Source of the DNA: a virus
Virus genome (UHGV): UHGV-0091782
Strand: one strand, 5' to 3'
DNA length: 38,471 bases
Both the position numbers and the translations under genes were made by a program. Below the pieces are notes generated by a model. It did no database searches. It was not told the origin of the DNA and saw nothing but the letters and a program-made list of their open reading frames with translations. Positions 8,040-38,421 of the stretch are shown one piece after another (position 1 is the first letter of the stretch; every line of letters starts with the position of its first letter).

Positions 8040-9088
8040 GAAATCGTCCCCAGTACCGCCAGTTCATTTTTTGCAATGGAGATATTGTCTGCCGGTGCAA
8101 GCAACTGATGGCTGTATTCCCCGTTCGCACCGGAAATCGCCTCACTGATACGCGATACCTTCAGTTCTCCCTGCGGATAACCATCACGCAGCAGGAACGA
8201 ACGCAACTCCGCGGTGATGGCAGCCCGTATTTCCGGTGTGTCCGGCGTCACGCGGATATGAAAATCCACCGTATGTGCCACCGGCCTGAACACATACAAA
8301 TCAGAGCCTGCCACCGGGACCAGTGGCTCGATATGTTGTCTTGCCGCCGTTTCCGTTGATTCTTCCGGAATGGGATTAATCAGGTCACTGCCGGCAATCA
8401 TCACACCGACAGTTCCCGTTCCCATCCAGTGACGGTATGTCCATGCGCGGGTAATGCCGGGCACTTCTTTAGCCCAGACGACATAGTCCCCGTCAGCCCC
8501 GCCCTGCGGCGTCCAGTAATACCGCTCAATGACGCGGGCGCGCCACGTTTCCAGCTCTTCAGTATCAAATCCGCCTGTCAGGGTGTCAGCCACACCGGAA
8601 GACGGCAGACCATTCACCGGCGTGACCAGGATTAATGACGTACCGTCGTCAGCGTTACCGACCGCGCCTGCACTTGAGCAGGCGATCGGCACGCGCAGGA
8701 CACCACCGGAGCTGGTTGCATCGGCAGTTGCCGTGTACTGAACCAGGTCATCGCGCTGAATAACACTCCCGGCGGTCACCTTCAGGCCATCGCTGACACC
8801 TTCCCAGCGCATATACCCGCTGGCAGCCGTGGCCCCCTTGCGCGGACACCGTTTCATCGCAGCATGTCGCGCCAGCCATGACTCATCACACAGGTCAGGC
8901 AGCATGTTCATTGCCAGATAATCGATGTAACCGTAAACCGTATGCAGCGCCGCCGCATACACCTTTGCCCGCACGTCTTCATCCATGCGCCGGAGCGTGT
9001 CGCTGACGTCCAGCCTGGCGAATAAATCGTTACGGAGCATACTGATATTTTCTGCCAGCGTCGGGCGATGAAATTCACTGTCCGCCAT
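8030..9088 (-). CDS. Baseplate J-like protein (Mu gp47-like)
   Basis: Size, overlap-coupled position and similarity to baseplate J-family proteins. Confidence 0.65.
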
Positions 9089-26498: not shown

Positions 26499-26834
26499 TT
26501 ACTCCTTCGAGCTACCAAATTTGTTACCGATTACTCGCATTGCAGCCCCACGAATAGCATCGACACCGATCAGCCCAACGCCGCCACCAATGGCAACAGA
26601 AAGAGATTTAGGCCATCCGACATACTCAAGAGCGGATGCAAAAGTCAGCGTCAGAGCACCACAGAGCAAAATCTCGAGCGTTTTTCGCTTCCAGCCACCA
26701 CCACCGCCAAAATAGGCAATGCGCAAGCCAGCCATAACGATCGACATAATCACTGCGCCCAGCGGTGTGTCTCCACGCCACCAGCTCTGAAACAACTCCA
26801 GCCAGTCCGGCCAGGTATTTGGGTTATGAGGCAT
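26499..26834 (-). CDS. S: Holin (lambda S-like, 3 TM)
   Basis: Immediately upstream of the endolysin; pattern ...MAGLRIAYFGGGGGWKRKTLEILLCGAL... parallels lambda S ...[26 protein letters not shown]... Confidence 0.65.
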   Translation of the reverse strand: MPHNPNTWPDWLELFQSWWRGDTPLGAVIMSIVMAGLRIAYFGGGGGWKRKTLEILLCGALTLTFASALEYVGWPKSLSVAIGGGVGLIGVDAIRGAAMRVIGNKFGSSKE

Positions 26835-27100: not shown

Positions 27101-27847
27101 ATGCGACATAATTTTTCTAAAGACACTATAAAAAAATTAGCAGAGCGGGCAGCATTCATTTGTTCAAACCCTTCATGCCCTAGATTGACCATTGGCCCAT
27201 CAATTGATGGCAATAAATCAATCAAGACAGGAGTTGCTGCTCACATATGTGCAGCATCTCCTGATGGCCCACGCTATGACATGTCACAATCAGAAACAGA
27301 AAGGAAGTCAATTAACAATGGCATATGGCTGTGTGCTACTTGTTCTGTATTAATAGATAAGAATCAGGGGCTAGACTATCCGGCACCTGTATTAAGAAAA
27401 TGGAAAAAAGATCATGAAAGCCTTATAAGCTCCTGTCTTGAAGGTTCGATTAATATTACCTTCGATGCTTTGAAATATATTCAACAGCATGATGAAAGAA
27501 ATCTGGCAAAAAAGATTATAAATGAATTGGATGATAAAGGGGCTTTGTTCGTAGAATATCATCTTGAAAACCCCTGTTTTGTTGCCGAATCACTCAAAGA
27601 GTTAAGAACCTGTTTGACCTCTTTGCTTTCTCAAATCCCAGATGAATCACCTCTATTTATCGTTTGCAAGTCAATTCGAGAAGCATGCCGTTATTATATG
27701 AACAACACTTCTAAAGACGCAGGGATTAAAGAGTTAGAATTTTCGTTGGGAGCTGTCAGAAAAATCGTAGGTATCAACGTTAAAAGAATATCAGAAACCT
27801 ACGGGGTTAAACCTAGCCCACAATTATCTACCATAATGCCAGATTAA
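27101..27847 (+). CDS. AT-rich moron: HNH-like (beta-beta-alpha-metal finger) nuclease-domain protein, 248 aa; candidate defence or exclusion effector
   Basis: N-terminal CSNPSCP...GVAAHICAASPDGPRYD...NNGIWLCATC arrangement (Cys pair, His, Asn, second Cys pair) resembles HNH nucleases lacking the last His; opposite strand to all flanking phage genes; own terminator. Confidence 0.5.
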   Translation: MRHNFSKDTIKKLAERAAFICSNPSCPRLTIGPSIDGNKSIKTGVAAHICAASPDGPRYDMSQSETERKSINNGIWLCATCSVLIDKNQGLDYPAPVLRKWKKDHESLISSCLEGSINITFDALKYIQQHDERNLAKKIINELDDKGALFVEYHLENPCFVAESLKELRTCLTSLLSQIPDESPLFIVCKSIREACRYYMNNTSKDAGIKELEFSLGAVRKIVGINVKRISETYGVKPSPQLSTIMPD

Positions 27848-27897: not shown

Positions 27898-28260
27898 TTA
27901 CTCCATTTCTAAACGAATATCCAGCATCGAGAGACAACCATCTATAAACCCTTCAGCCAACTGTATCTCTATACGTATCAATTTCTCATCTTTTTTGTAT
28001 GCTTTTGCTATCTTCCTTTTCGAGATGCCATACAGGTAATGAGCCACAATCAGAGAGTGCTCATATGGTTTTCTCTTCTTAAGAAGAGCAAGACAACCTT
28101 CAATAATTAATGCATCACTATCTGAACAAGCCTGACGTGTTTTGCTTGTATAGGGAAGAAGCCCTTTAAACCCAGCAGCTATAGGAGAATAGTCTACTCC
28201 AGAACTATCACTCGCCGCCCATGCTCCCCAACGATCCAGAACCATCTGAATATCACGCAT
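27898..28260 (-). CDS. Late-gene antiterminator Q (QuuD / phage 82 Q-like)
   Basis: MRDIQMVLDRWGAWAASDSSGVDYSPIAAGFKGL... matches my recollection of E. coli QuuD; start at ATG 28260 with GGAG upstream. Confidence 0.8.
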   Translation of the reverse strand: MRDIQMVLDRWGAWAASDSSGVDYSPIAAGFKGLLPYTSKTRQACSDSDALIIEGCLALLKKRKPYEHSLIVAHYLYGISKRKIAKAYKKDEKLIRIEIQLAEGFIDGCLSMLDIRLEME

Positions 28261-28277
28261 CAACTTTCTCCACAAAA

Positions 28278-33376: not shown

Positions 33377-33399
33377 ATATGTACCTCCAGTGTACATAT
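33377..33399. promoter_or_regulatory. Operator palindrome ATATGTAC-N7-GTACATAT overlapping the probable PR -10 / start region
   Basis: Perfect 8-bp arms read in sequence in the cI-cro intergenic region. Confidence 0.55.
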
Positions 33400-33427: not shown

Positions 33428-33448
33428 CTTGTACCTTAACGGTACAAG
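33428..33448. promoter_or_regulatory. Operator palindrome CTTGTACC-TTAAC-GGTACAAG near the probable PRM -35 / upstream of PR
   Basis: Perfect 8-bp arms sharing the TGTAC half-site with the first operator. Confidence 0.55.
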
Positions 33449-33463
33449 GGTTTTAATTTCGTT

Positions 33464-34138
33464 ATGAAAACAATCCATGACATCCGGCGGTCTAACGCCA
33501 GAAAACTGAGAGATGGTGTTGGCGGGAATTCTTCCTTTGCCACTATGATTGATCGCGAGCCAACCCAGACCAGCAGGTTTATGGGAGATGGTGCTACTAA
33601 AAATATCGGTGACAGCATGGCACGACACATCGAAAAATGTTTCGACCTGCCTGTCGGATGGCTCGATCAAGAACACCAGACAACGAACATCACAAAAAAA
33701 CCTGATGTTTCAATCACTAATAAACAAATCACATTAGTCCCTGTCATATCATGGGTACAGGCCGGAGCATGGAAAGAAGTTGGATATTCTGAGGTTGATT
33801 TGAGCACAGCAGAAACGTATCCCTGCCCTGTACCCTGTGGGGAAATGACTTATATCTTGCGGGTGATAGGTGATTCAATGATTGATGAGTACCGCCCGGG
33901 AGACATGATTTTTGTCGATCCTGAAGTACCTGCCTGCCACGGTGACGACGTTATTGCATTGATGCACGATACAGGCGAAACCACCTTCAAAAGGTTGATA
34001 GAAGATGGGACACAGCGTTATCTCAAAGCGTTAAACCCAAACTGGCCTGAGCCTTACATTAAGATCAACGGTAATTGCTCTATAATTGGTACAGTGATTT
34101 TCTCAGGAAAACCAAGAAGATACAAAATCAAAGCCTAA
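33464..34138 (+). CDS. cI: CI-type prophage repressor (N-terminal DNA-binding domain plus C-terminal S24 LexA-like autopeptidase domain)
   Basis: C-terminal ...VIGDSMIDEYRPGDMIFVDPE...TFKRL... contains the Ser and Lys catalytic dyad context; divergent from the cro-like gene; apparently leaderless-type start. Confidence 0.85.
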   Translation: MKTIHDIRRSNARKLRDGVGGNSSFATMIDREPTQTSRFMGDGATKNIGDSMARHIEKCFDLPVGWLDQEHQTTNITKKPDVSITNKQITLVPVISWVQAGAWKEVGYSEVDLSTAETYPCPVPCGEMTYILRVIGDSMIDEYRPGDMIFVDPEVPACHGDDVIALMHDTGETTFKRLIEDGTQRYLKALNPNWPEPYIKINGNCSIIGTVIFSGKPRRYKIKA

Positions 34139-34150
34139 TCAATGTTTATG

Positions 34151-34173
34151 AACCTGCTTCGGCAGGTTTTTTT
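34151..34173 (+). terminator. Rho-independent terminator after cI (stem aacctgc/gcaggtt, loop ttcg, 7 T)
   Basis: aacctgcttcggcaggttttttt, 13 nt after the cI stop. Confidence 0.7.
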
Positions 34174-34177
34174 ATAC

Positions 34178-34210
34178 TTGACAATGTACCTTTAAGATAC
34201 ATAATGTACC
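34178..34210 (+). promoter_or_regulatory. Probable PL promoter (-35 TTGACA 34178-34183; -10 CATAAT 34200-34205) overlapped by two ATGTACC operator half-sites
   Basis: Consensus -35, 16-nt spacer, 5 of 6 match at -10; ATGTACC at 34184-34190 and 34204-34210. Confidence 0.55.
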
Positions 34211-34331
34211 CAAGCGAAACAACGAACAGGCAGGACGCCCACGAAGTAGCCGCCTGGGGCATATGAAGTCCAGGATGATTCGTTGAGTCATGTTGTGCCA
34301 CTAGGCACTCATGTTAAAGCAGGTGTATGAA

Positions 34332-34607
34332 ATGAAAGTCCAGATTTTAAACAATAACTGTGAAGTCGTTTGGTCATACGACATAGCCGCCCCTGTAGAT
34401 CAGAGCGGCGATAGCTGGACCAATGGGAAACATCAGATTATGGCTGGAGTTGTGTTCTCTTTACGCCGTGCTTTGGAACAGGCTGAAGTATTTCCATCAG
34501 ACCCTGAATGGAAATGGCCTTTTTCTATTTGTCCAAATTCGGAGAGCACATTTCAGAAAATTGGTCAGAAAGTCGCACTCGAAGAGCATCAGCCAACTGT
34601 TTCCTGA
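34332..34607 (+). CDS. Hypothetical first gene of the early-left operon (91 aa, start at the second Met with AGGTG upstream)
   Basis: ORF 34311..34607; not Arg-rich, so not an obvious N homologue. Confidence 0.35.
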   Translation: MKVQILNNNCEVVWSYDIAAPVDQSGDSWTNGKHQIMAGVVFSLRRALEQAEVFPSDPEWKWPFSICPNSESTFQKIGQKVALEEHQPTVS

Positions 34608-34770
34608 TTTTTTCAGGTAACTCGTCGGCATCGCAGAAACAACAACGCTCGATCATGTTGAAAGCCGATTCGTAGAACTGTTTCTGCTGAGTGTCGCTGA
34701 GACAGGAAAAGAGCGACGTTACGATGATTTTATTAATTGCATTATCAAGTTCTTTTTCATCAAAAGTCAT
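34525..34770 (-). CDS. Hypothetical protein (81 aa) convergent with and overlapping the 34332-34607 ORF by 83 nt
   Basis: ATG 34770 with AAGGA 7-8 nt upstream; protein-like composition. Confidence 0.35.
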   Translation of the reverse strand: MTFDEKELDNAINKIIVTSLFSCLSDTQQKQFYESAFNMIERCCFCDADELPEKIRKQLADALRVRLSDQFSEMCSPNLDK

Positions 34771-35024
34771 TTGATTTTCCTTTTATGTATACGGGCTTAA
34801 AAGGATACCACCGAGCCTGAAGTGGTGAAAAGACAGGCACATAACAGCTAAGTATTTTCAACCAAAGAGAATCCTTAGCGTTGTGGTGAATGCGGCTCAG
34901 CGCACGCGGGTTAAGGTTGAGGCTGACAGTCGACCTTCTGTGGATACCCACCCGTCTGGTGTGCAACCTTCGCCAGGCACCGGGAGGCACCCGGCACCAC
35001 AACTTTATGCTGTGTGTAGTCCTG

Positions 35025-35070
35025 GCGGTACCAGTTTGTACCCTTGCTTCCGGCTGGTACCGTCCTTTTT
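35025..35070 (+). terminator. Strong hairpin (10-bp stem gcggtaccag/ctggtaccgt, 19-nt loop) followed by CCTTTTT; tL-like terminator or structured RNA element
   Basis: Read in sequence; second weaker hairpin plus ATTTATT at 35173-35193. Confidence 0.45.
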
Positions 35071-35284
35071 ACAAAACAGAGAAGAGCATCACCGGACGAC
35101 GGGCTCATAACCCAATCCATCCGGGCGGCTGCCACCGCAGGTGTTCTTCTCTGTTTTGTGGAGAAACTAACCGCCCCTGCGGGGGCATTTATTGAAACGT
35201 AATTAACTCAATAATCGCCGAAATGCGAGGGCTTCCTTTTAGCAAAATTCAGTGCGGTGCAGCGCAAATAACGTAGAGAACAAA

Positions 35285-35821
35285 ATGTCATTTATTAAAA
35301 CTTTTTCCGGGAAGCATTTTTATTATGACAGGATAAATAAAGACGACATCGTTATTAACGATATCGCGGTTTCTCTTTCAAATATCTGTCGCTTTGCAGG
35401 GCATCTTTCACATTTCTACAGCGTTGCCCAACATGCGGTGCTTTGCAGCCAACTGGTACCGCAGGAATTTGCTTTTGAAGCGTTAATGCATGATGCAACA
35501 GAAGCGTATTGCCAGGACATCCCGGCGCCACTGAAACGCCTTCTTCCTGACTATAAACGGATGGAAGAAAAAATAGATGCAGTAATCCGTGAGAAATACG
35601 AGTTGCCCCCGGTTATGAGCACGCCTGTGAAATATGCCGATCTAATCATGCTGGCAACCGAACGCCGTGATCTCGGGCTTGATGATGGCTCTTTATGGCC
35701 TGTACTGGAAGGTATCCCGGCAACAGAGATGTTCAAAGTTATTCCACTGGCACCGGGCCATGCCTACGGGATGTTTATGGAACGCTTCAACGAGTTATCG
35801 GAATTACGCAAATGTGCATAA
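35285..35821 (+). CDS. HD-domain phosphohydrolase (YfbR/YfdR-like 5'-deoxynucleotidase)
   Basis: ...SVAQHAVLCS...ALMHDATEAYCQDIPAPLK... fits the HD motif; start at ATG 35285 with GAGAA upstream. Confidence 0.7.
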   Translation: MSFIKTFSGKHFYYDRINKDDIVINDIAVSLSNICRFAGHLSHFYSVAQHAVLCSQLVPQEFAFEALMHDATEAYCQDIPAPLKRLLPDYKRMEEKIDAVIREKYELPPVMSTPVKYADLIMLATERRDLGLDDGSLWPVLEGIPATEMFKVIPLAPGHAYGMFMERFNELSELRKCA

Positions 35822-37031: not shown

Positions 37032-37381
37032 TGGAGCCATACAGCCTCACACTCGATGAGGCCTGTCATTTTCTCAAGATATCCAGACCGACTGCCATTA
37101 ACTGGATACGCACAGGGCGTCTTCAGGCAACACGCAAAGATCCCACTAAGAATAAATCTCCTTACCTCACAACACGACAAGCCTGCATTGCGGCTCTTCA
37201 GTCTCCGCTGCATACTGTCCAGGTGAGCGCGGGTGATGGCATAACAGAGGAAAGAAAATGTCACTCTTCCGCAGAGGTGAAATATGGTACGCCAGTTTCA
37301 CATTGCCGAACGGTAAAAGATTTAAACAGTCTCTTGGAACAAAGGACAAAAGGCAGGCGACAGAACTCCATGACAAGCTAA
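37031..37381 (+). CDS. xis: Excisionase (P22 Xis-like), overlapping the start of int
   Basis: [33 protein letters not shown]... HTH typical of excisionase/AlpA-type proteins; AGGTG upstream. Confidence 0.7.
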
Positions 37382-38421
37382 AGGCTGAAGCATGGCGGGT
37401 CAGCAAACTTGGTGAAATACCTGATATAACGTTCGAGGAAGCGTGTGTCAGGTGGCTTGAAGAGAAAGCACATAAAAAATCACTGGACGATGACAAAAGC
37501 CGGATCGGATTCTGGCTTCAACATTTCGCAGGAATGCAACTAAGAGACATTACTGAATCAAAAATTTATTCAGCAATGCAGAAAATGACGAACCGGCGTC
37601 ATGAGGAAAACTGGAAACTCAGGGCAGAAGCATGCAGAAAAAAAGGGAAACCTGTTCCAGAATACACGCCAAAACCAGCGTCCGTTGCAACGAAGGCTAC
37701 GCATCTTTCATTTATAAAGGCCCTACTAAGAGCCGCAGAGCGTGAATGGAAAATGCTGGATAAGGCACCAATTATTAAAGTGCCTCAACCAAAGAATAAA
37801 CGGATCCGCTGGCTGGAGCCCCATGAAGCACAAAGGCTGATTGATGAATGTCCGGAGCCATTAAAGTCTGTTGTTGAATTTGCACTGGCAACAGGCTTAA
37901 GACGCTCGAACATCATCAACCTTGAATGGCAACAAATAGACATGCAGCGCCGGGTGGCATGGATAAACCCGGAAGAGAGTAAATCAAACCGCGCAATTGG
38001 CGTTGCGCTGAATGATACTGCATGTCGCGTATTGAAAAAACAAATCGGGAATCATCACCGTTGGGTATTTGTGTACAAGGAAAGCTGTACCAAACCAGAC
38101 GGAACGAAAGCGCCAACGGTCAGGAAGATGCGGTATGACGCAAACACAGCCTGGAAAGCGGCGCTGAGACGGGCTGGTATTGATGATTTCAGATTTCACG
38201 ACTTGAGACACACCTGGGCAAGCTGGCTGGTTCAAGCCGGAGTCCCGTTGTCAGTGTTACAGGAAATGGGAGGCTGGGAGTCTATCGAAATGGTTCGTCG
38301 ATATGCTCACCTTGCACCTAATCACCTTACCGAACACGCACGGCAAATAGACTCGATCCTGAACCCATCGGTCCCAAATTTGTCCCAGTCAAAAAATAAG
38401 GAAGGTACTAATGATGTGTAA
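37258..38421 (+). CDS. int: Tyrosine integrase (P22 Int-like), transcribed toward the att site
   Basis: [24 protein letters not shown]... N-terminus and C-terminal ...[42 protein letters not shown] catalytic region (R, H-x-x-R, Y); 14 nt from the tRNA 3' end. Confidence 0.9.

Follow-up and report, generated by a model that had tools for sequence, protein, structure and literature searches.

The viral genome UHGV-0091782, a stretch of 38,471 nucleotides that we refer to as the window, holds between positions 34800 and 35284 a hairpin-rich interval in its early-left operon. The window is an e14/SfV-like Escherichia coli prophage that matches a clinical isolate at 100% identity and, across most of the region, phage SfV at 99%. 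Its plus strand runs in the early-left direction, with cro on the minus strand, cI at 33464-34138 (+) and the integrase gene at 37258-38421, and the order after the putative promoter pL is orf33 (34311-34607), the hairpin-rich element and then the yfdR, 3'-phosphoadenosine 5'-phosphosulfate (PAPS)-reductase, xis and int genes. This position is constant across phages: a repressor gene is followed by variable cargo, the element and the first early-left gene. A first-pass annotation had described the interval as non-coding, with tandem terminators, and had left room for an antiterminator RNA of the HK022 put type or for another structured regulatory RNA. Here, we describe the anatomy of the element and its relatives, and argue that the interval is probably the non-coding leader of a cI-repressed pL operon that encodes a composite small RNA (sRNA) of the DicF/KilS/STnc100 group.

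The hairpin-rich character of the interval is real, and every feature listed in the first-pass annotation is present to within 1-2 nt. The segment 34800-35200 folds at -168.9 kcal/mol (z = -7.7; equalled by none of 100 shuffled sequences), and 34100-35400 contains seven terminator-like sites, compared with 1.4 +/- 1.2 in shuffles. Among 81 close relatives, the conserved block extends from ~34808 to ~35172-35185. The element is modular and is composed of a hairpin A, a hairpin P1, a structured core, a single-stranded seed, a terminator T1 and a long hairpin P1'. Hairpin A (34806-34827, +), taken from the fold, forms the left boundary of the block as drawn from the close relatives, and the same hairpin also stands in front of the homologous elements in Rac, Rac-SA53 and Klebsiella phages. 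P1 (34840-34885, +; CAUAAC-A-GCUAAG...CUUAGC-GUUGUG) folds at -18.9 kcal/mol (z = -4.3); its 3' arm and the 5' strand of the closing helix of the core overlap, and P1-equivalent hairpins covary in other genera. By analogy with its homologues, P1 is likely an RNase III or processing hairpin. A boxA-like sequence, UGCUCUUU, found in the P1 3' arm of many homologues, was considered as a nut site and rejected, since it shows helix-type covariation and the window lacks it. ARAGORN found nothing tRNA- or tmRNA-like in the window.

The core (34880-35003, +) is a structured domain of about 125 nt, which is closed by the helix GUUGUGGUG (34880-34888)/CACCACAAC (34995-35003) and encloses five predicted hairpins, the last being CCGGG-AGGCA-CCCGG at 34980-34994. 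It scores 114 bits with a covariance model termed R1, and the next best position in the window reaches 11 bits, so that there is one copy; BLAST of the element, a motif search and the covariance search with filters off likewise gave no second copy in the window. When 35 matches are aligned to R1, 98.8% of the cells are paired and double-sided changes are seen in 8 of the 17 pairs, figures to be read with the caveat that most core sequences were found via fixed words in the closing helix and that the alignment is fitted to the model. None of 500 shuffles is as good, and slid controls collapse. The closing helix occurs as GUUGUGGUG/CACCACAAC, GAUGCGGUG/CACCGCAUC and AAUGCAGUG/CACUGCAUU, and the last hairpin as CCGGG/CCCGG, CCUGG/CCAGG, GCCGG/CCGGC, GCUGG/CCAGC and UAGG/CCUA, while GAAU and the loops GCUCAGCGCA and AGGCA are unpaired and conserved.

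The core is followed by a 14-nt single-stranded seed, UGCUGUGUGUAGUC (35008-35021, +), which is mostly unpaired in the fold, its last five nucleotides pairing weakly with the U-tract. The same 14 nt are found in K-12 KilS, Rac-SA53, K-12 RprA, phiES15 and a further locus, L131, and with one mismatch in ST64B. Terminator T1 (35024-35070, +), with arms GGCGGUACCAG...CUGGUACCGUC followed by C-UUUUU, has a stem of 13 bp, two of them G-U, that joins 35024-35036 with 35052-35064, and the C-UUUUU lies at 35065-35070. Its minimum free energy is -23.8 kcal/mol (z = -3.4; none of 200 shuffles as good). The KilS terminator is its homologue, and the stems of the two differ by compensatory changes (UACCAG/CUGGUA versus CAUCAG/CUGAUG). 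By analogy with terminators of the DicF/KilS type, this first 'terminator' is presumed to be the small RNA's own 3' end.

Beyond T1 lies the long hairpin P1' (35071-35159, +), a partial second unit with arms ACAAAACAGAGAAGAGCAU...GUGUUCUUCUCUGUUUUGU, which folds at -46.2 kcal/mol (z = -7.0), has 20 consecutive bp at its base and is followed by GUGGAGAAAC at 35156-35165. P1' is ~95% identical in mEp460, cdtI and the Stx2a/Stx2c phages and looks like the P1 hairpins found ahead of cores in other genera. A GC hairpin (GCCCC/GGGGC, 35173-35186) and the ATTTATT after it make up the next feature (35173-35193, +), which has z = -1.9, with 11 of 200 shuffles folding as well, and is a weak terminator at best. 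Window positions 34140-35184 match the SfV element and 35173-35300 match the SfV yfdQ-yfdR spacer, 35173-35184 aligning with both; from these split matches it follows that the window is without yfdP-yfdQ relative to SfV and that the junction lies inside the short GC hairpin. Comparison of the two sequences suggests that yfdP-yfdQ may have been deleted by recombination between similar hairpins (window 35171-35186; SfV locus 3370-3385 and 4678-4695). The call of tandem terminators is therefore borne out for T1, which is strong, and not for the second GC stem, which is weak and belongs to a different piece of DNA. In the SfV record (U82619.2), the annotated rho-independent terminator (2959-2991 of the SfV locus) maps to window 34758-34790, where no hairpin is seen; T1 lies ~270 nt beyond that site and is itself unannotated in the record.

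The first-pass annotation saw no convincing open reading frame (ORF), and the interval indeed reads as non-coding, with frames that are not conserved. Overlapping ORFs lie on both strands (34760-35002, -; 34883-35110, +; 34890-35195, +; 34911-35135, -; 35044-35202, +), and long frames are open simultaneously in five of six frames. That the 101-aa ORF at 34890-35195 encodes a YmfH-like small protein we regard as hardly credible, even if existing records point that way: the e14 homologue is annotated in K-12 as a coding sequence, ymfH, the Prokaryotic Genome Annotation Pipeline (PGAP) puts a 'hypothetical protein' at this ORF in a 100% identical genome, and older phage records stretch YfdP or hypothetical proteins across the element. 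The PGAP entry, however, is marked frameshifted, the ORF matches no Pfam and no PHROG family, and a six-frame comparison showed no frame that persists in the ST64B copy, which is 77% identical, or in phiES15, Rac or a Klebsiella phage. Among the 81 close relatives, variable sites are distributed 24:23:29 over the three codon positions, with no third-position excess, and 1-nt indels are tolerated; the changes that are seen preserve RNA pairing. By way of a coding gene with homologues, the position thus offers a name, 'putative protein YmfH' in K-12, attached to an unconserved frame.

The K-12 counterpart is informative in another respect. The element is present in 2,105 of 5,426 complete E. coli genomes, and its e14 copy is 90.6% identical over 383 nt (34802-35184) and located directly upstream of xisE-intE. 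The supplementary tables of Bar et al. 2021 list ymfH with sRNA scores of 0.113 for exponential phase (81 chimeric fragments, three partners) and 0.094 for stationary phase (117 chimeric fragments, four partners); the candidate threshold of that study is 0.1, and the corresponding pairs of scores are 0.103 and 0.119 for dicF and 0.033 and 0.154 for KilS. The SIC scores imply that ymfH is always the second RNA in the chimera, the usual sRNA signature. K-12 ymfH is, in our view, mis-annotated as a protein.

An Rfam covariance search, the check proposed in the first-pass annotation, returned nothing at gathering thresholds over the whole window and, in E-value mode, a sub-threshold match to STnc100 (RF02076), with E = 8.3e-7, which covers model positions 1-206 and window 34858-35073 and ends at T1. 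The STnc100 motif CACCGGGAGGCACCCGGCACCA has a single occurrence, at 34978-34999, against a chance expectation of 0. EcOnc27 and PasD, which belong with STnc100, have been reported as Hfq-associated prophage sRNAs of unassigned function, and PasD has been sized by northern blot. Tracing hairpin A through other phages leads to Rac, where KilS (b4833), a 98-nt RNA of K-12 encoded upstream of kilR, was predicted from Hfq RIL-seq, the ligation and sequencing of interacting RNAs, and verified by northern blot, with an independent promoter being favoured (Bar et al. 2021). The annotated KilS 3' end lies at the U-tract equivalent to that of T1, and the KilS hairpin matches the Rfam DicF family at 39-41 bits. 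R1 gives 118 bits to a core in Rac (locus 3260-3394, -) and 102 bits to one in Qin (locus 2952-3085), both immediately upstream of the ribosome-binding sites of kilR and dicB, respectively, and both unannotated in the K-12 record. Rac, Qin and the window all hold P1, seed plus terminator and core; hairpin A is shared, of these three, by Rac and the window.

The processing of these relatives has been described best for DicF, which is seen by northern blot and is cut from a polycistronic early-left transcript by RNase III, giving a 190-nt form, and by RNase E, giving a 53-nt form; no internal promoter was found. By our own placement from the stated length, the 5' end of the ~190-nt form would fall in the Qin P1 3' arm, and by our own reading of the sequence KilS has its mapped 5' end just upstream of the Rac P1 3' arm. 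The anatomy, homology, covariation and lack of a conserved reading frame of the window element are observations of the present analysis; that such RNAs exist, associate with Hfq and are processed is taken over from the literature on these homologues.

The operon setting agrees with what the first-pass annotation had assumed, in that the element lies within the early-left operon, downstream of a promoter bearing a cI operator. The cI (ymfK-like) repressor gene is closed by an intrinsic terminator found in a terminator scan (34150-34169, +), an 8-bp stem followed by TTTTTAT, and the SfV record has an annotated terminator at the homologous site. The promoter scan gives the near-consensus TTGACA-16-CATAAT at 34178-34205 (+; 11 of 12 matches), overlapped at 34184-34202 by an operator-like inverted repeat, ATGTACC-N5-xATACAT. 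Two repeats of the ATGTACC-N5-GGTACAT type, at 33380-33398 and 33429-33449 in the cro/cI spacer, are of the same type, and we take the promoter to be pL. The immunity region around it is 98.4% identical to K-12 e14 ymfK-ymfT. Similar ATGTAC... repeats surround the pL of HK022.

The first downstream gene encodes a yfdR-type HD 5'-deoxynucleotidase (35286-35821, +; PGAP annotation of a 100% identical genome). No promoter-like site was found by the scan on the plus strand between T1 and yfdR, and none besides the putative pL lies ahead of yfdR, so the early-left genes depend on transcription through the element. The HD, PAPS-reductase, xis and int genes therefore do need read-through, as had been claimed, a real intrinsic terminator standing between them and the cI-operator-bearing pL. 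The further claim that no N-like protein is evident also stands: none is recognizable in the phage, which has a Q-like late antiterminator only. The Q-like antitermination protein is encoded at 27898-28275 (-; phrog_79, E = 1.5e-45), and a 248-aa opposite-strand ORF (27101-27847) lies between its gene and the holin gene (26499-26834); the late region of the window has no STnc100-like core, unlike that of Stx and Fels-type phages. Between pL and the element, orf33 (34311-34607, +; 98 aa, phrog_3195) overlaps by 83 nt a convergent 81-aa ORF (34525-34770, -; phrog_3311) with a good AAGGA ribosome-binding site, to which pL transcription would run antisense; the PHROG matches show no more than that both ORFs have homologues in phage annotations. 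The cargo at this place differs in other phages and is often on the opposite strand, as with ymfJ/ymfI in e14, SfIV_36 and mEp460 gp37.

From this arrangement we infer the following model for expression in this prophage, its processing sites, the efficiency of T1 and the targets. Transcripts from pL (34178-34205) would run through orf33, P1, core, seed and T1, where a fraction of the polymerases would stop. Cleavage of P1 by RNase III could then release an RNA of ~190-200 nt consisting of core, seed and T1, and RNase E cleavage in the A/U-rich linker before the seed might yield a ~60-70-nt form possibly made of seed plus T1. Both forms would end at T1, whose hairpin plus U-tail would provide the usual Hfq-binding 3' end, and the sRNA would pair in trans via the seed that it shares with KilS and RprA. 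Polymerases that read through would pass P1', whose 20-bp duplex may plausibly be another RNase III site, and go on to the HD, PAPS-reductase, xis and int genes. As the read-through fraction alone carries these genes, T1 would act as a leaky attenuator that splits the output between sRNA and mRNA and would keep the excision genes low unless pL fires strongly.

Several points weigh against this sRNA reading. The complement of the seed occurs in the window only at the seed itself, which leaves no target within the phage. T1 has a loop of 15 nt, so that its efficiency is not predictable. The STnc100 match, at 39.5 bits, lies below the gathering score of 47, and the window hairpin reaches 15.7 bits with DicF (RF00039), for which the gathering score is 48, so the window element is not a DicF family member as Rfam defines it. 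The RIL-seq support comes from the 90.6% identical e14 copy, is near the threshold of that study and concerns a candidate not pursued there. A possible internal promoter, AAGACA-17-TATTTT at 34830-34858 (8 of 12 matches, by eye), is as possible as processing. Finally, the core has no role in the model.

The core must nevertheless do something specific, since a stretch of 161 nt has two common single-nucleotide polymorphisms in the 81 close relatives, and its distribution reaches well beyond E. coli. In an exact-word scan of one genome per species, it was found in Kosakonia, Pantoea, Citrobacter, Buttiauxella, Serratia, Raoultella and others, as well as in Aeromonas and in Massilia, where the context is uninformative; in the K-12 prophage CPS-53 (yfdO-yfdP spacer), the element is absent. 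The core can be written as GUGGUGAAU...CACC-GGGAGGCA-...CACCAC plus a type 2 variant, and in K-12 it lies in the dicF-dicB and kilS-kilR spacers and in ymfH. We suggest tentatively, as possible rather than probable, that it may be a distinct and widespread functional RNA domain of prophage early-left leaders, working either in cis or by way of a protein, for example as a scaffold for CsrA or by controlling Rho or elongation ahead of toxic early genes, and, separately, that the RprA 3' seed domain may share ancestry with a KilS-type module. Of the two sequence types of core, a joint covariance model was dropped because MAFFT misaligns the last hairpin between them. A kissing loop (GCUGAU/AUCAGC) in type 2, where the first-hairpin loop AGGCUGAU is complementary to the last-hairpin loop AGAUCAGCA, was likewise set aside as unsupported: such loops (e.g. 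mEp460 2352-2492, L135-L159) could give 4-6 bp and show no covariation because both are nearly invariant, and the Chania copy breaks the pairing. In Aeromonas enteropelogenes (locus 2445-2660), a type 2 core lies downstream of a Cro/C1-type helix-turn-helix gene, with a sequence that by eye reads like a tRNA gene within ~10 nt after it. ST64B has, at the end of the pR operon gene that follows a cII-like gene and overlapping its 3' end, an isrK-type Hfq-binding RNA (locus 19-95, -; 64.3 bits, gathering score 50).

An explanation of the core that is compatible with the sRNA reading, and that we consider unlikely, is that it is an independent cis-regulatory or protein-binding domain of early-left leaders that was captured in an sRNA; it could be a CsrA-binding module, a ligand sensor, a Rho-loading block or an mRNA-stabilizing 5' structure. 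Its spread across Enterobacterales, Aeromonas and Massilia and the high conservation of its unpaired nucleotides speak for such a role, as does its occurrence without seed or terminator directly before a first gene, namely kilR, dicB, an ORF of a Klebsiella phage and, in Buttiauxella, a yfdP-like gene. In keeping with this explanation, Rho/NusG silencing is known to act on kilR, and PasD2, which is reported to be related to STnc100, belongs to the CsrA-bound RNA pair that is most abundant in enteropathogenic E. coli. PasE, a CsrA-guiding sRNA, was considered and is a different RNA of 56 nt. GGA triplets occur in two core hairpins (34942-34944 and 34983-34985), one at a loop edge and the other inside a 5' stem arm, and a third (35158-35160) lies within the conserved GUGGAGAAAC, just before the leader of the downstream gene; their spacing, read by eye and without statistics, would suit a CsrA dimer. 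That the GGA motifs are partly inside stems tells against the explanation, and the order of the modules relative to terminators and genes is shuffled, unlike that of a classical aptamer-plus-expression-platform riboswitch, while the last hairpin of the e14 copy has lost 1 nt and contains a stem mismatch. CsrA binding, suggested by the GGA motifs and the PasD2 report, is a lead and nothing more.

It might also be that the hairpins simply terminate or insulate transcription and mark the recombination borders of phage modules, with no functional RNA product. The sharp block boundaries at ~34808 and ~35172-35185, the shuffling of modules between unrelated phages and the deletion junction marked by the second GC hairpin would all fit, and T1 would shield xis and int from leaky transcription. 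For a terminator, however, a covarying domain of 125 nt and an invariant 14-nt seed shared with KilS and RprA would be superfluous, and the homologues are Hfq-bound RNAs, so we hold this account to be quite improbable. Still less probable, and in our estimation very unlikely, is a put analogue, in which the core would act in cis as a processive antiterminator RNA that makes pL transcription resist T1 and later terminators. The idea draws on a phage without recognizable N, a strong terminator between pL and the early-left genes, a position at the putL/nutL site in many N-less lambdoid prophages and a conserved, covarying core with no assigned role. Against it, the putL and putR regions, read without a dedicated put model, share no motifs with the element, R1 finds no match in the HK022 immunity region at E <= 0.01, and the single copy in the window has no counterpart in the pR operon or the late operon. 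In the window the core comes before T1, but in Rac and Qin it comes after the sRNA terminator, and a core downstream of a terminator cannot help polymerase past it; in the Klebsiella phage and Buttiauxella relatives, no terminator follows the core at all. Two relatives with the core-plus-terminator layout, STnc100/EcOnc27 and PasD, have been reported as discrete sRNAs that associate with Hfq, which argues for efficient termination or 3'-end formation after the core, and in uninduced K-12 no read-through species of dicF-dicB was seen. The put-type proposal of the first-pass annotation is thus not supported, and its fallback, another structured regulatory RNA, is the part that the evidence for an sRNA locus upholds. 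The core may still play a part in cis, in elongation or in the control of Rho.

Seen in this light, the element is of an ordinary kind, an sRNA locus with a terminator of its own in the early-left operon of a prophage; its composite form is so far undescribed, and it is no new antitermination system. The sRNA reading turns the K-12 y-gene ymfH, and with it a block widespread in E. coli, into an sRNA locus, and gathers DicF, KilS and STnc100/PasD in a single modular family at the head of early-left operons. The presence of the RprA seed in this family predicts cross-talk of prophage induction with RprA-type targets, and a conserved, covarying RNA domain is brought to light ahead of the toxic genes kilR and dicB, which encode cell-division inhibitors.

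Among known systems, put resembles the element in that a lambdoid phage without N has a structured RNA downstream of its pL, and polymerase must pass terminators for the early-left genes to be expressed. Read-through at put works via binding of the RNA to the zinc-binding domain of the RNA polymerase beta' subunit. A put site, however, is ~70 nt long, has two stem-loops, lies at or near the promoter and is present in two copies, after pL and after pR, whereas the window core has ~125 nt, five hairpins and one copy and starts ~665 nt from the likely pL start. The STnc100/EcOnc27/PasD group shares the ~200-nt layout, with a closing helix UGGUGAAU...CACCGGGAGGCACCCGGCACCA around hairpins, a linker and a terminator, but its known members are late-region RNAs, encoded near Q or downstream of stx2B, and their linker does not have the seed sequence of the early-left window element. 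DicF has a homologous terminator hairpin, a P1-type hairpin upstream and the same core, located between dicF and dicB; it differs in its seed, UUUCUGGUGACGUUU in place of UGCUGUGUGUAGUC, and in the placement of the Qin core after the terminator.

RprA (RF00034) is a chromosomal gene and not a prophage gene, and is regulated by Rcs. Its 3' conserved domain has the same UUGCUGUGUGUAGUC, whereas its terminator differs and its 5' two-thirds, the rpoS-pairing part, are dissimilar. The similarity extends to 19-28 nt in phiES15 (2596-2669) and L131 (~8330-8400), where the identity in L131 includes the 5' arm of the RprA terminator, GCCCAUCUC; from the sequence, the part after the core in these two loci looks like a phage-borne RprA-like 3' module, and the phiES15 homologue scores 41 bits with RprA, for which the gathering score is 70. 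The window itself gives no Rfam match to RprA at E <= 10 and has only the 14-nt seed in common with it. We found no paper that names KilS and RprA together.

The closest relatives are ymfH and KilS. ymfH (b1142) is the same element as that of the window, behind a 98.4% identical cI/cro/pL region; it differs in that e14 has lost everything between the element and xisE, in the single-nucleotide deletion and mismatch of its last core hairpin, and in being filed as a protein gene. KilS, like the window element, lies between a repressor gene and the first early-left gene, has the identical seed UGCUGUGUGUAGUC and a homologous terminator with compensatory changes, and is encoded at a locus where hairpin A, P1 and core are also present. 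In Rac, the core comes after the terminator, in the 5' untranslated region of kilR, so that KilS is without it, whereas in the window it lies between P1 and the seed, from which an RNA of ~200 nt is predicted; and where KilS is followed by kilR, the element is followed by yfdR in the window and by xisE in e14.

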